From Crocinitomicaceae bacterium (GTDB lineage Bacteria; Bacteroidota; Bacteroidia; Flavobacteriales_D; Crocinitomicaceae), in NCBI GenBank assembly GCA_030833845.1, contig JAURGK010000001.1:97468-161467 (forward strand): a stretch of DNA of 64,000 bases, read 5' to 3'. A model generated the notes under the pieces. That model did no database searches and had not been told where the DNA came from. It saw only the letters and a list, made by a program, of their open reading frames with translations. The translations under genes were made by a program, and so were the position numbers. The stretch's first letter is position 1. The number at the start of each line of letters is the position of its first letter. Positions 4,020 to 56,114 of this stretch are shown in pieces.

Positions 4020-4721
4020 CTATATGGCATTTAAGATGCGTTCTAATCTGGCTTCACTTACCTTTAAAATGGTCTCTGAAAATGCAGAATCGGGATCCAA
4101 TTGAACCTTTTGAGTGGCAGAAAAATGAATGGCTGAAAGCCCCTTGATATGCGCTAATTTAGATATATTACCTGCATTTACGCCGCCACCTGCCATGATC
4201 TCAATGTGGCCCTTGGCATAAGCACACATTTCACCAAGTACCCCTATGCCTAATTCAACATTGGAGGCAAAGCCAGAGGTAAGCACCCTTTTGAATCCTA
4301 GTTCTATCAAGACATCTAGGGAGCGTTTCCAATCAATACTCTCGTCAAATGCACGGTGAAAAGTCCAATCTAGGTCGGGTGCTATGTTTTTAAGGTCAAT
4401 AAGCGCTTGCTTATCAATGCCAAAATTCTCTTTCAACACACCGATTACAACTCCTTGAACTCCAAGCAAATGACAATAAGCAATTTCTTTTTGCATCAAA
4501 GCCAGCTCCTCTTCATTGTAACAGAATCCTCCAGCCCTTGGCCTAATAAGAACATGCGTATTCAAGTTGAAATCTTTAGCCATTTGGATGAGTCCGGCTG
4601 ATGGTGTGAGCCCGCCCTGCTCCAAATTCTGACAAAGTTCAACTCGATCAAATTGATGCTTATAGGCCAATTCAAGGGCCTCTAAAGAGGCCGCACAAAG
4701 TTCTAATTGGAGTGCATTCAT
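4020..4721 (-). CDS. cutC: Copper homeostasis protein CutC family (TIM-barrel)
   Basis: Full-length similarity to CutC: LELCAASLEALELA..., HVLIRPRAGGFCY, RVLTSG, IMAGGGVN. Confidence 0.85.
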   Translation of the reverse strand: MNALQLELCAASLEALELAYKHQFDRVELCQNLEQGGLTPSAGLIQMAKDFNLNTHVLIRPRAGGFCYNEEELALMQKEIAYCHLLGVQGVVIGVLKENFGIDKQALIDLKNIAPDLDWTFHRAFDESIDWKRSLDVLIELGFKRVLTSGFASNVELGIGVLGEMCAYAKGHIEIMAGGGVNAGNISKLAHIKGLSAIHFSATQKVQLDPDSAFSETILKVSEARLERILNAI

Positions 4722-15777: not shown

Positions 15778-15850
15778 GATATTTTTTTTTATTCTATAAA
15801 AATACGCAATTCTATTCTTTTGCAAATAAAATTTAAGTAAAGGATATATT

Positions 15851-22993: not shown

Positions 22994-23643
22994 GGAATTC
23001 TACCAAAGCCCACGAGTCGCTTTTGCCAATAGGGTGAATTTTCTAATTCGGTTATAATGATTCCTTTGGAGGAGCTTGCATGAATCATTTTTTTTGGCGT
23101 TCCTTCTGCCGACACAATGATGCCTACATGGCTCACTTCCTGTTTCTCTGCAAAAAAGACCAGATCTCCAGCTCTGACATCAGCAGAACTCACTTTTTGA
23201 CAGAACTCATACTGAAGTACTGCGCGTCTCGGTAAGTTTTGTCCATTTTTTTCAAAAACGTAACACACAAAACCGCTACAATCAAATCCATTGGTGTCAT
23301 TACCCCCGTATTTATATGGTATACCCAGGTGATTTTCTGCCTCCTGGATTATTGCTTGAGTTTGATCGATGCTTTTGGGCATCCATTCAATTTCAAAACC
23401 ATGTCTTTGGGCCCAATGGTTCCAAGGGATATCTTTGGACAGTTCTTGGGCGGCTAAAATTCTATAATTGGACAGCTCTTGATTGTGTTCATAGGCTGGG
23501 TTCATCATTAAACGACCTGCCCTTCGGTATACCATTTTATAATGACCTTGATTGTATAAGATTTTTAACTTTTCTATTTTAACATCTTGGGCTTGAATGT
23601 CTCCGATCCATAAAATAAAAAAAAATGGAATGATATACCTCAT
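22990..23643 (-). CDS. NlpC/P60 (C40) family cell-wall peptidase, secreted
   Basis: Signal peptide. Catalytic Cys region YKYGGNDTNGFDCSGFVCYVF and His region SHVGIIV. Confidence 0.88.
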   Translation of the reverse strand: MRYIIPFFFILWIGDIQAQDVKIEKLKILYNQGHYKMVYRRAGRLMMNPAYEHNQELSNYRILAAQELSKDIPWNHWAQRHGFEIEWMPKSIDQTQAIIQEAENHLGIPYKYGGNDTNGFDCSGFVCYVFEKNGQNLPRRAVLQYEFCQKVSSADVRAGDLVFFAEKQEVSHVGIIVSAEGTPKKMIHASSSKGIIITELENSPYWQKRLVGFGRIP

Positions 23644-29985: not shown

Positions 29986-31101
29986 ATGAGTGAATTTGTT
30001 GTATCGGCCCGCAAATACCGCCCGCAAACCTTTGACACGGTTGTCGGACAGCAAGCCATCACCAATACGCTTAAAAATGCTATCAAAAATGAGCACTTGG
30101 CTCAAGCATTTTTGTTTTGTGGTTCAAGAGGAGTCGGGAAAACAACCACGGCTAGAATTCTTGCCAAAACCATTAATTGCTTTGAACCTACGGCTAATAT
30201 TGAAGCATGTGATCAGTGTGATTCTTGTCTTTCCTTCCATACAGGTAATTCACTCAATATTTACGAACTTGATGCGGCCTCAAACAACTCCGTCGATGAC
30301 ATTCGTAGCCTCATTGATCAAGTCCGTATTGCTCCACAGCTAGGCACCCACAAGGTATACATCATCGATGAGGTACACATGCTTTCTACCTCTGCATTCA
30401 ATGCTTTTCTTAAGACCTTGGAAGAGCCGCCTAAACATGCCATTTTCATTCTAGCGACCACTGAAAAACATAAAATCATCCCAACGATATTATCAAGGTG
30501 TCAGATTTTTGACTTTCAAAGAATTAGAGTCAAAGATATCGCTGAACACCTGAGCACCGTAGCAACTAAAGAGGGAGTTTCAGCTGATGCTGAAGCGCTG
30601 CACCAAATTGCGATGAAAGCAGATGGTGCGCTTAGGGATGCCCTGTCTATTTTTGATCAAATCGTCACCTTTGCAGGCAACACCCTTACCTATAAGGATG
30701 TATTAGATAATTTACACATCCTAGACTACGAATATTATTTTAAGGTTATCAATGCGGCAGAAAAAGAAGACATACCTACTGCCCTGCTCATCTTAAATGA
30801 CATCTACGAAAAAGGATTTGATGGACATCATTTTGTAGTTGGCTTGGCTGAACATTACCGCAACCTTTTGGTTTGCAAAGATGCTCAAACTGCTAGCCTT
30901 CTTGAGGTCCCAGATACCATCAAACAGCGCTACCAACAACAAGCGGCTGAAGTTGAATCTGTTCGAATCTTAAGAAGCTTACAAGTATTATCCAAGACCG
31001 ACGTTGATTTCAAAGCATCAAAAAACCAACGATTACTCATTGAGGTAGCGCTCATGCAACTCTGCTCATTAAAGCAAGAGCAAGAAAAAAAAAAGGCCTA
31101 A
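29986..31101 (+). CDS. dnaX: DNA polymerase III subunit gamma/tau, zero-frame product (gamma-like, domains I-III only)
   Basis: Walker A GSRGVGKTT. Zinc module CDQCDSC. Walker B/DEXX motif YIIDEVHML. SRC motif SRC. The ORF ends ...CAA GAA AAA AAA AAG GCC TAA, two codons after an A10 run. Confidence 0.9.
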   Translation: MSEFVVSARKYRPQTFDTVVGQQAITNTLKNAIKNEHLAQAFLFCGSRGVGKTTTARILAKTINCFEPTANIEACDQCDSCLSFHTGNSLNIYELDAASNNSVDDIRSLIDQVRIAPQLGTHKVYIIDEVHMLSTSAFNAFLKTLEEPPKHAIFILATTEKHKIIPTILSRCQIFDFQRIRVKDIAEHLSTVATKEGVSADAEALHQIAMKADGALRDALSIFDQIVTFAGNTLTYKDVLDNLHILDYEYYFKVINAAEKEDIPTALLILNDIYEKGFDGHHFVVGLAEHYRNLLVCKDAQTASLLEVPDTIKQRYQQQAAEVESVRILRSLQVLSKTDVDFKASKNQRLLIEVALMQLCSLKQEQEKKKA

Positions 31102-31703
31102 CTGACCGCATAGACATTCTTCCTTTTCCAAAACAGTCCTTAAGAAAGTCCGAAGCAAGGCAGCATAAACCTTCAGAACAACCCCCAACACAACCTACAT
31201 CTAGCCCCGCAACTGCACCCTTAGTTGTTCAGCCACAACTCGCAACTAAATCAGCTATCATTTCTATCAAAGAAACGATAGAAAAAGATAAACAAAGTAA
31301 GCAGCAAATCCGACAAGAGGACTTGCCAAGAGAAGGGTTTCATCTTGACCATGTTAAAATGTATTGGAAACAGTTTGCTTTCCAACTCAAAGAAGATGGA
31401 ATGGAAACCTTTTACAATGCCTTGATCAAGCGAGATCCTGTATTGAAATCAGACGAAGTATTAGAACTTACCGTGGATAATCTTGTACAGTATAACTACA
31501 TTCAAACACATCTCATCACCTTTAAAGAATTCATGCGCAAGCAACTCAACAATTACTATTTAGACATTGTTGTGGTGCAAGCCGCCCCTAGTGATGAAGA
31601 GGTAAAGTTTTTAAGCGGCAAGGACAAATTTGCAGCGATGGCACGTAAAAACCCAAATCTGCACACGCTCAAAAATAGATTTAACCTAGATATTGACTAT
31701 TGA
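31085..31703 (+). CDS. dnaX: Tau-specific C-terminal part of dnaX, reached only by a -1 shift (or a +1 A insertion) within the A10 run at 31085-31094
   Basis: The -1 frame is open from 31044 to 31703. It reads ...KKKGLTDRIDILPFPKQS..PSEQPPTQPTSSPATAPLVVQPQ.. (Pro/Gln linker), then the 126-aa region that the ORF track lists as 31323-31703 with a TTG start. Confidence 0.7.
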
Positions 31704-32716
31704 TGCAGCCCAAATGGCGTTTTGTAGATAAGCACCCAGAACTTGTTCTGTTAGCCAATGATTTTCTTCACAGATGGGAACACAACGCGCATTTTGAAAT
31801 CAAAAGCTCTGGTACTACCTCTGAACCAAAAACATTTCGTTTCACCAAAGACCAACTCATTCATTCAGCGAAGCTCAGTATTGCTGCCTTTGGATTAAAT
31901 CAGCATTCACGGGCCTTGATGTGCCTTCCCTTAAATAGTGTTGGAGGATTGATGCTTTTGGCTCGTTCTTTGGTAGGAAATTTTGAATTATATCTTCAAA
32001 ATCCAACATCGAGGCCTTTAGAAAAAATTGAATTGACATTTGATTTTGTATCCATGGTCCCTACTCAACTGCAGCAATCTCTAACTTATGATATTAAAAA
32101 TTTGGTAAATATTTCCAATATCCTGATTGGTGGTGGTGCAATAAATACAGCGCTCATCGAAGCATGTCAAAAGCAAAAAATGAATGTCTGGCAAAGTTAT
32201 GGCATGAGCGAAACGCTTTCTCATGTTGCTTTGCGCAAATTAAGCCCTACAGAAACGCTGAATTATGAAGCATTACCCGGTATTAAATTTTCCAAAGTAA
32301 ATGACTGTTTGAGCATTGCGTATCCTGAAATATCCGAAGTGCCGCTTCAAACCACAGATATAATTGAACTTCATAGCCCCACTTCATTTAGGTGGCTTGG
32401 GCGTGCCGATCATGCCATCAATTCAGGTGGGTTCAAAATTATTCCCGAATTACTCGAAAACAAGCTCTCTTCAGGAATAAATATACCTTTTTATATTGCG
32501 GGATTAGCAGATGAAAAATGGGGAGAGATTGTTGTTTTGGTGCTAGAAACCTACAACTCACCCGATTTAACATTTTTAAAACAAATGGGATTGCCAACAC
32601 ATGAAATTCCTAAAAAATATGCTGTTATTCCAACTTTTATACGCACTACAACAGGAAAAGTAAAGAGAAGTGAAACATCTAAACTAATTCAAATTGAGCA
32701 TTGGCGATCCATTTAA
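31703..32716 (+). CDS. AMP-dependent synthetase/ligase, short MenE-like (o-succinylbenzoate-CoA ligase-like)
   Basis: Adenylate-forming motifs SSGTTSEPK, YGMSET, GGFKI and the terminal GKVKR. TGATG overlap with the dnaX stop. Confidence 0.75.
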   Translation: MQPKWRFVDKHPELVLLANDFLHRWEHNAHFEIKSSGTTSEPKTFRFTKDQLIHSAKLSIAAFGLNQHSRALMCLPLNSVGGLMLLARSLVGNFELYLQNPTSRPLEKIELTFDFVSMVPTQLQQSLTYDIKNLVNISNILIGGGAINTALIEACQKQKMNVWQSYGMSETLSHVALRKLSPTETLNYEALPGIKFSKVNDCLSIAYPEISEVPLQTTDIIELHSPTSFRWLGRADHAINSGGFKIIPELLENKLSSGINIPFYIAGLADEKWGEIVVLVLETYNSPDLTFLKQMGLPTHEIPKKYAVIPTFIRTTTGKVKRSETSKLIQIEHWRSI

Positions 32717-54986: not shown

Positions 54987-56114
54987 CTAGGTGTTTTGAG
55001 CAATTTCAATCAGGCCCGAAGCAAAATCTTTCCATGCTTGCTCGATATTCAAATTACTTTGAGAAAGATGGGCCTTACACTTTAGTATATCTCCTTGATT
55101 AAAAAGACTTTGAATGCGTTTTGAAAAATTTATTGGGTCGGTTTCCAATAACTCAAAACCTTGATTTGTGGCCTCTAAACCTTCGGCTAATCCGCCAACA
55201 TTTGTGCACAATACCGGACATTGCTGACTCAAGGCCAAGGCGCGTACACCAGACTGAGTTGCACTGAGATAGGGTAAAACAACCAAATCTGAAGCTTGAA
55301 AATAAGTCGCCACCTCTTCTTCGGGTATGAATCGTTGGTCAAAACGCCAATTTGAGCTGCTCAAAAGCTCGAGTTTTTTTTGATAGGCTGCCGCATCACC
55401 ATAAACTTCACCTGCAATCAATAACTGGTAATCTTGGCCTAATAGTTCAAAGGCAGAAATCAATTCCATCAGGCCCTTATAAGATCTAATCAGTCCAAAA
55501 AACAATAAAGTCTTCTTGTGAGGATTTAAATTCAAGGCTGCGCAGGCCTGCTCTTTAGAAAGACGAGGTGTATCAAGCTCATAAGGAGGATGAGGTAGCA
55601 AAATGATATTGGCGTCCGGTTTCAAGGCTAATACTTCCTTTTTGACTGCCGCAGAAAGCACCACAAAGGCATCATAAGCACGTAGAAAGCGCTTGTTTAA
55701 CCATGTATCGTAAAAACGTTTTTCATGCGGATTCAAATTATGGATGATGGCAATTTTTTTGGTGCGCCTTGGAAGAAACCAAGTCCAGAAAATCATCATA
55801 GGCGCCATGAATGTCATCCAATAGGAGCTGACAAAAACATCGGGCTTCTCCTTTCTAAAACGTAGTGCCGAAAATAAATAAGTGAAGGGGTTAAATGTGG
55901 AAACAACGCGTTTGGCACCCACGTCTTGAAGCTCAAAATCATACTGGCTTGAGCCGGGAAAAAGCATGTCGGGGTATTGTTTTTTAAAGGTAAATGCCTT
56001 TAGCTCCACACTGGTGTGTAATGCTTTAATTGTAGCTGCACTAAACTTTGAAATCCCTCCCCGAAACGGAGGCAAAGCTGAAAAAAAAAGCCATTTTGCT
56101 GGATTTTGTCTCAT
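54987..56114 (-). CDS. Glycosyltransferase, GT4/GT-B fold family
   Basis: About 375 aa with GT-B architecture. The C-terminal half has LLIAGE...VLPY...SGV...A...PV motifs typical of the 'glycosyl transferases group 1' family. 4-nt overlap with the upstream gene. Confidence 0.8.
   Translation of the reverse strand: MRQNPAKWLFFSALPPFRGGISKFSAATIKALHTSVELKAFTFKKQYPDMLFPGSSQYDFELQDVGAKRVVSTFNPFTYLFSALRFRKEKPDVFVSSYWMTFMAPMMIFWTWFLPRRTKKIAIIHNLNPHEKRFYDTWLNKRFLRAYDAFVVLSAAVKKEVLALKPDANIILLPHPPYELDTPRLSKEQACAALNLNPHKKTLLFFGLIRSYKGLMELISAFELLGQDYQLLIAGEVYGDAAAYQKKLELLSSSNWRFDQRFIPEEEVATYFQASDLVVLPYLSATQSGVRALALSQQCPVLCTNVGGLAEGLEATNQGFELLETDPINFSKRIQSLFNQGDILKCKAHLSQSNLNIEQAWKDFASGLIEIAQNT

Follow-up and report, generated by a model that had tools for sequence, protein, structure and literature searches.

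The dnaX gene of an uncultured bacterium of the Crocinitomicaceae (Bacteroidota; Flavobacteriales_D) is split at a run of ten A's (A10), such that its zero frame encodes only a short, gamma-like clamp-loader subunit and the full-length tau subunit very probably depends on a recoding event. The gene lies in a stretch of 64,000 nt of contig JAURGK010000001.1 (GenBank assembly GCA_030833845.1, positions 97,468 to 161,467 of the forward strand), which is called the window throughout, and all coordinates are those of the window unless another locus is named. The A10 run is the true genomic length and the split is not a sequencing artefact. Slippage of RNA polymerase on the run is probably the route by which tau is made, and it is the route towards which the comparison of dnaX loci across the phylum points most consistently. 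That recoding takes place at the level of transcription, and with what efficiency, is what we infer from these genomic comparisons.

The zero-frame open reading frame (ORF) extends over 29986..31101 on the forward strand, as do all features described below unless stated otherwise, and it encodes 371 aa. This product carries clamp-loader domains I-III, as recognised by the Pfam profiles PF13177 (E=8e-45), PF22608 (E=3e-13) and PF12169 (E=3e-12), and its reading frame ends with CAA GAA AAA AAA AAG GCC TAA. The A10 run (T10 on the template strand), which is the proposed slippage site, occupies 31085..31094, and the zero-frame stop TAA is found two codons past it, at 31099..31101. A TGA at 31103..31105 terminates the +1 frame. 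In the -1 frame, an upstream TGA at 31041..31043 precedes an open stretch that begins at 31044 and runs to the TGA at 31701-31703. The zero and -1 frames can be joined only within 31044-31101, a segment of 58 nt whose 5' limit is set by the upstream TGA. Past the run, two frames meet stops at 4 nt and 8 nt, and the third has no stop for 606 nt. A fused protein of 572 or 571 aa is predicted from a transcript with A11 or A8, or from a -1 shift during translation; an A7 or A13 transcript would give gamma minus or plus one Lys, and an A9 or A12 transcript a short gamma-like product ending ..RPN. The N-terminal equivalence to DnaX was scored on P0001, a natural A8 variant protein (571 aa, locus L081) that differs from the fused A11 product by one Lys, and which reaches 435 bits with TIGR02397 (dnaX_nterm) against a cut-off of 250. 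The positions of the ORF, run, stops and joining window and the fusion length of about 570 aa given in the original prediction were all verified on the sequence. Its two central claims also hold, namely that the zero frame yields a gamma-like protein only, as borne out by the frame anatomy, the domain profiles and a conserved -1-frame peptide, and that tau requires recoding, as borne out by the frames and by the profile match of the -1-frame part presented below.

Taken by itself, the run is statistically ordinary for a window as A+T-rich as this one, with six A9 matches observed in the window versus 11.4 expected from shuffled sequences. What exceeds chance is its position and its conservation, and it is the sole run of nine or more A's deep within an ORF of the window. 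The other A9/T9 runs (2808-2816, 15782-15790 on the reverse strand, 23617-23625 and 56081-56089) are either intergenic or at most about 45 nt from mechanically called ORF starts.

The conservation of the run was assessed in a census of 158 non-redundant Bacteroidota dnaX loci, drawn from the matches listed in genome and metagenome scans; the metagenome matches listed were mostly distant relatives and were used for the census only. A run of A9-A13 is present at the homologous site in 117 of the 158 loci, or about three quarters, and mostly it is exactly A10. The gene is split in 34 loci, and in 30 of these the run stands right at the break (27 A10, two A11 and one A13). The tau frame of these 30 genes is the -1 frame in 26 cases and the +1 frame in four (L035, L066, L070 and L148, representing three lineages), where the same A10 would have to be shortened by one A or lengthened by two. 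Two of these four, L070 and L148, are independent assemblies of related organisms. The remaining 124 loci encode dnaX in frame, and 87 of them nonetheless carry A9-A12 at the site, 66 having exactly A10. In these 87 genes (L003, L006-L012, L014-L020, L022-L024 and others), the run lies at codons ~350-387 and stops occur a few nucleotides downstream in both other frames, which corresponds to the layout of the Thermus gene. Two of the three frames close within 30 nt of the run in 112 of 120 loci, versus 29% of background positions, while the third frame is open for at least 471 nt past the run in every sampled locus, whichever frame is the genomic one. The base that follows the run is unconstrained in the same 120 loci (G in 40, T in 38, C in 42). 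On a rough neighbour-joining tree, at least 17 changes are needed between the split and in-frame states and, because both states keep A10, these switches are attributed to insertions and deletions outside the run.

Some loci depart from this pattern. In-frame dnaX genes in which no A-run of eight or more is found at the domain III/IV boundary account for 36 loci (L021, L025, L037, L094, L096, L097, L099, L100, L103-L107 and others), which are mostly gut Bacteroides or Bacteroidaceae by record title, where one was shown; here the slippage site has seemingly been lost, or gamma is made otherwise, or there is no gamma. Interrupted genes with no A-run were also encountered, i.e., L077 (~4060-4210 of that locus) and L130 (~1170-1320), which continue in the +1 frame, and L046 (~2700-2850), in which an open frame follows an in-frame TAG; L157 (~2260-2410) has a short A stretch only. 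Errors, pseudogenes or other forms of recoding are possible in these four cases.

According to the proposed mechanism, faithful A10 transcripts would give rise to the 371-aa gamma-like subunit only, while RNA polymerase slipping on the T10 template tract would generate mRNAs with extra or missing A's. Transcripts with A11, or more rarely A8 or A14, would place the -1 frame in register, and their ordinary translation would produce a tau protein of about 572 aa, whereas those with A9 or A12 would encode the second short product. The frequency of slippage would then set the tau:gamma ratio, and a nascent-RNA hairpin just upstream of the run may raise this frequency. Transcriptional slippage predicts products in all three frames, no preference for particular bases beside the run and a run that matches the RNA:DNA hybrid in length, and the features of the census fit these predictions.

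The most serious alternative is ribosomal. In Escherichia coli, dnaX carries a -1 frameshift cassette that comprises an A_AAA_AAG heptamer, a Shine-Dalgarno-like element and a stem-loop (Rfam RF00382). The window contains the same heptamer at 31089..31095 (codons GAA AAA AAA AAG) in the right phase, so programmed -1 ribosomal frameshifting on unslipped A10 mRNA could be the main source of tau, as in E. coli with the products reversed, and the predicted protein would be identical. A candidate with E. coli-like stimulators has been described in Chlorobium phaeobacteroides, in which the run is only A7 (review by Atkins et al. 2016, PMC5009743). However, the stimulators are missing from the window: the 36 and 66 nt past the run fold worse than shuffled sequences (z +0.8 and +1.4), neither GGAG nor AGGA occurs in the 25 nt upstream, and an Rfam search of 30800-31400 at E<=10 returned four chance matches, none of which is RF00382. 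Across the phylum, the 60 nt past the run have a mean z of only -0.24. Moreover, close relatives with the same split have T in place of the G of AAG, the run is three nucleotides longer than the heptamer requires and yet is conserved at exactly ten, the four +1-type loci would have to shift by +1 or -2 at the same A10, and the rapid closure of both non-tau frames is unneeded for a -1 shift alone. The features of the census are thus not those expected from an E. coli-type -1 frameshift cassette. Slippage is favoured because shifts in both directions occur on the same A10, because the following base is unconstrained and two frames close quickly, and because neither a downstream hairpin nor the Rfam DnaX element is present; ribosomal frameshifting as the main source of tau is accordingly judged improbable, though by some way the best of the alternatives. 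The earlier statement that no convincing stimulatory hairpin exists downstream is confirmed by the folding and Rfam results, and the comparative data side with its preference for transcriptional slippage over ribosomal frameshifting, with the reservation that the in-phase heptamer leaves room for a ribosomal contribution to a mechanism that is itself deduced from comparison.

Hairpins located 5' of the run are enriched across Bacteroidota dnaX. The 30-40 nt that precede the run have a mean minimum free energy (MFE) of -5.98 kcal/mol, versus -2.91 kcal/mol for other windows of the same gene, and in 49% of loci the 30 nt before the run rank within the lowest decile of their gene by MFE. After collapsing the set to 74 loci with dissimilar upstream sequences, 42% still fall in the lowest decile (p=8e-13). 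Measured against recodings of the same 12 codons with synonymous ones, the loci have a mean z of -0.84, and 28% of them do not exceed the 5th percentile; at control positions, z is -0.04 to -0.21 and the corresponding share is 4-8%. In 92 of 120 loci, only 0-3 nt separate the 3' arm of the hairpin from the run, and the sequence of the stem varies from lineage to lineage. Such a hairpin may act as a nascent-RNA stimulator of slippage. In the window itself, the candidate structure (GCUC.UGC / GCA.GAGC; 31050..31081), identified by folding, ends 3 nt before the run and has a free energy of -8.2 to -8.4 kcal/mol, with z of about -1.3, or z of -1.6 and the 6th percentile relative to synonymous recodings.

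Several considerations weigh against this account of slippage assisted by an upstream hairpin. The window hairpin is weak, at z of about -1.3 to -1.6, and the close clade shows little covariation, the consensus structure reaching -3 kcal/mol with few compensatory pairs; because of this weak covariation, no hairpin is claimed for the window. Most of the census loci come from metagenome assemblies, and the few odd cases, i.e., the A11, A13 and +1-type loci, could be assembly errors. A literature search returned no experimental work on dnaX recoding in Bacteroidota. Finally, any run of ten A's contains an in-phase A_AAA_AAN, and with A_AAA_AAG in phase in the window, a -1 ribosomal shift would give the identical tau, such that a ribosomal contribution, minor or even major, is possible.

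The region reached by recoding is homologous to the tau C-terminus. The -1-frame continuation (31095..31703) encodes 202 tau-specific residues followed by the TGA stop, and this part alone aligns to positions 428-614 of the 614 positions (the last 187) of NF011531, the DnaX gamma/tau equivalog profile, with E=7e-20. The fused protein, represented by P0001, scores 735.8 bits with the same profile against a cut-off of 685. An alignment of relatives reveals a conserved -1-frame peptide, LTDRIDILPFPKQSLR (31098..31145), which begins one codon past the run and belongs to a consensus KKKxLTDxxDxxPFPxQxLR shared by ~25 relatives at 43-76% identity. The zero-frame TAA is itself embedded in the conserved -1-frame codons CTA ACT (Leu-Thr), and in relatives the stop is either TAA or TGA, according to which of the synonymous codons CTA and CTG the -1 frame uses. 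The peptide is followed by a Pro/Gln-rich linker (31146..31334) of low predicted order, with a predicted local distance difference test score (pLDDT) of 37-58. Insertions and deletions in this linker are multiples of three, as exemplified by a strain-level 12-nt tandem copy-number polymorphism at 31177/31178, where ACAACCCCCAAC is present once in the window and in L084 and twice in L082, which adds an in-frame QPPT; the same 12-nt length difference is found in L083 and L085-L088. The first start codon of the -1 frame in the window is a TTG at 31323, with no ATG, GTG or TTG before it. Because the conserved motif adjoins the run, no start codon precedes 31323, linker indels are multiples of three and NF011531 matches the -1-frame part, the -1 frame appears to be translated through the junction.

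These data bear directly on a reading in which two separate proteins are made with no fusion, namely the 371-aa gamma-like subunit and an independently started C-terminal protein, initiated at TTG 31323 or ATG 31359. Gene callers do routinely predict such a stand-alone ORF, of 114-223 aa, yet the starts they choose in relatives are inconsistent over this whole range (114 to 223 aa), the best-conserved segment of the linker (LTDxxDxxPFPxQxLR) precedes every start and abuts the run, the frame is open from the run onwards for at least 471 nt in every sampled locus, and about three quarters of relatives have the region covalently joined to the rest of DnaX. Independent initiation is consequently very unlikely.

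The C-terminal part of the -1-frame product (31335..31700) is predicted to form a folded domain, which belongs to Pfam DUF8439 and is the proposed counterpart of tau domain V. The 457 C-terminal homologues all fall in this family (PF28557), while the local Pfam copy gave no match to the C-terminal 202 aa and a PDB sequence profile search with the C-terminal part found nothing. The structure model has a pLDDT of 67 overall and of 83-89 for residues 81-160. A fold search of the PDB placed DnaA domain I nearest (4tps, E=9e-3, TMt 0.67), followed by DciA and FliK; all of these matches are weak, none having E<=1e-3, and 2AYA is absent from the PDB matches of the model. DnaA domain I, DciA and FliK are also the type II KH-like neighbours of tau domain V (Marsin et al. 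2021, PMC8216460). The modelled resemblance is no more than suggestive of a shared domain V fold. Some DUF8439 ORFs in relatives (P0128, P0132 and P0139) read past the usual ..NLDIDY stop into an extension of ~60 aa, for which stop-codon loss or assembly error is possible.

The length of the run was examined in independent assemblies and in relatives. A10 was found in seven of the seven independent JGI/ENA assemblies read that carry the exact 371-aa protein. This exact A10 product is indexed on at least 21 contigs, and an exact look-up retrieved it from at least 18 contigs and four sources, while the same exact look-up among ~15 billion proteins found no A7, A9, A11, A12 or A13 product; since assemblies report a consensus, this absence bears on homopolymer error and says nothing about RNA. 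In the comparison of run length and frame structure in close relatives that had been suggested with the original prediction, relatives at 92, 83, 79, 76 and 72% identity, whose DNA was read, all keep A10, its phase and the stop two codons later, and their run is followed by G or T. A length of exactly 371 aa is also shared by hundreds of 90%-identity clusters at 79-99% identity, and a few reach 375-383 aa owing to a different start call. An attempted dN/dS analysis found dS saturated between the window and L171/L172 in most segments; with synonymous sites saturated, chance would not preserve a run made up of AAA instead of AAG codons. At 72-100% identity, all members of the window's clade are split with A10, except for two single contigs. 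The first, L081 (2485-4200 of the 9.4-kb contig ena:ERZ27246435:k141_439123), has A8 and an intact 571-aa tau gene and is otherwise identical to the window across dnaX; it is either a real in-frame population allele or an assembly artefact. The second, L174, is a 2.7-kb contig from a relative at 76% identity and has A11.

The existence of these in-frame A8 and A11 variants as single contigs, together with the mutation-prone nature of A10 tracts, gives some ground to phase variation at the DNA level, in which replication slippage in the tract would create A11 or A8 subpopulations that supply tau. Nevertheless, tau is needed by every replicating cell, the consensus is A10 in all sampled populations but one, and the arrangement is stable across species, which makes this a very remote explanation. 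Both phase variation and independent C-terminal initiation were therefore considered and rejected, on the grounds of the unconserved starts, the motif abutting the run and the cross-species stability of the arrangement. Least credible of all is the trivial alternative raised at the outset, a sequencing or assembly error hiding a genome that truly has A11 (or A8) and an ordinary in-frame tau gene: L081 and L174 are its only in-frame contigs in the clade, and it is rejected by the A10 of seven other assemblies from different projects and assemblers, by the A10 product on at least 18 contigs with no A9 or A11 product in the collection, by the retention of the A10 split in species-level relatives down to 72% identity, and by the A10 of in-frame genes elsewhere in the phylum, which places the frame difference outside the run.

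Altogether, these findings can be brought together in a broader model, which we consider evenly poised between acceptance and doubt. The A10 run and the upstream hairpin would constitute a Bacteroidota-wide dnaX slippage cassette, kept at exactly ten A's whichever product is genomic, and lineages would have switched between tau and gamma as the in-frame product at least about 17 times via indels outside the run. In lineages such as that of the window, an essential replisome subunit would come only from mis-copied transcripts, with the error rate of the polymerase setting the stoichiometry of the replisome. If true, an essential protein would be wholly dependent on non-templated transcription, and Bacteroidota dnaX would offer a natural system for the study of how slippage is tuned by run length and an upstream hairpin, and of why bacteria keep both tau and gamma. 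There is also a practical consequence: hundreds of protein clusters currently list dnaX of this clade as two entries, a 371-aa 'gamma/tau' protein and a 'hypothetical protein' (DUF8439), and recognition of the recoding would correct these records and give DUF8439 a function as the tau C-terminus. The hairpin and the repeated switching of polarity do not appear in the literature found, as far as its accessible portions extend, and together with the phylum-wide extent of the run they might be new.

Downstream of dnaX, the stop of tau shares bases with the ATG of the following gene in a TGATG (31701..31705), the gene calls overlapping by one base. This gene (31700..32716) encodes an AMP-binding, acyl-CoA synthetase-like protein, and the overlap resembles that of translationally coupled genes. 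No tRNA genes were found in the window, tRNA-Lys included, whose repertoire bears on the slipperiness of AAG for the ribosome.

Several known systems share parts of this organisation. With E. coli dnaX, the window gene has in common the gene itself, the boundary and the heptamer in phase; it differs in having no Shine-Dalgarno-like element upstream, no downstream stem-loop and no Rfam match, in the reversal of the products and in a heptamer whose last base is unconserved. Transcriptional slippage in the IS630 element of Roseiflexus is stimulated by a stem-loop, which the T5C5 motif of that element requires in order to slip (Penno et al. 2015, summarised in PMC5009743). The position of the candidate nascent-RNA hairpin directly 5' of the slippage motif is alike in both cases, but A10 would be expected to slip alone, and the hairpin in dnaX is a statistical tendency that is weak in the window. 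Slippage in Shigella spa13 and mxiE leads to a C-terminally extended product (PMC5009743) and, as proposed here for tau, the functional long product arises only after slippage; these are, however, unrelated genes whose extended product is not essential for replication. The closest mechanistic parallel is dnaX of Thermus thermophilus, in which RNA polymerase slips on A9 (Larsen et al. 2000, summarised in PMC5009743). Both genes have a run of at least nine A's on the coding strand at the domain III/IV boundary, with stops nearby in both non-tau frames and two products from one gene. The run is A10 in the window versus A9 in Thermus, and the polarity is opposite: the Thermus genome encodes tau and slipped transcripts gamma, whereas here the genome encodes gamma and slipped transcripts would encode tau. 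A genomic zero frame encoding tau, as in Thermus, is found in the 87 related in-frame loci, while the zero frame of the window gene stops at 31101.

The reasoning of the original prediction was sound, but this inverted polarity is less novel than it implied and was already published. Antonov et al. (2013, NAR 41:6514, PMC3711429) report two-ORF dnaX genes that need recoding for tau, amounting to 17 genes in 12 genera, nine of these genes having A10, including those of Flavobacterium johnsoniae, F. psychrophilum, Cytophaga hutchinsonii, Capnocytophaga ochracea, Chlorobium and Coraliomargarita. These genes were described there by computation, and transcriptional realignment was proposed by analogy with Thermus, with dnaX itself not tested experimentally, an account that is repeated in the review by Atkins et al. 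(2016, PMC5009743). The accessible part of the text contains no report of A10 in in-frame genes across the phylum or of an upstream hairpin. The window gene shares with the type of Antonov et al., as described there, an A10 where domain III ends, a stop that closes the zero frame immediately past the run and the tau C-terminus in the -1 frame. It differs from the set described there in its host, a different and uncultured Flavobacteriales lineage to which the nearest species representative of the genome collection shows 76% identity. The two-ORF arrangement itself, in which domain III ends at a poly-A run followed by a stop and the tau C-terminus lies in another frame, has thus been known since 2013, and the dnaX gene of the window, in which this layout is present, adds one example; conserved as it is in relatives and recurring in the 30 split census loci with an A-run, the layout is not a one-off.

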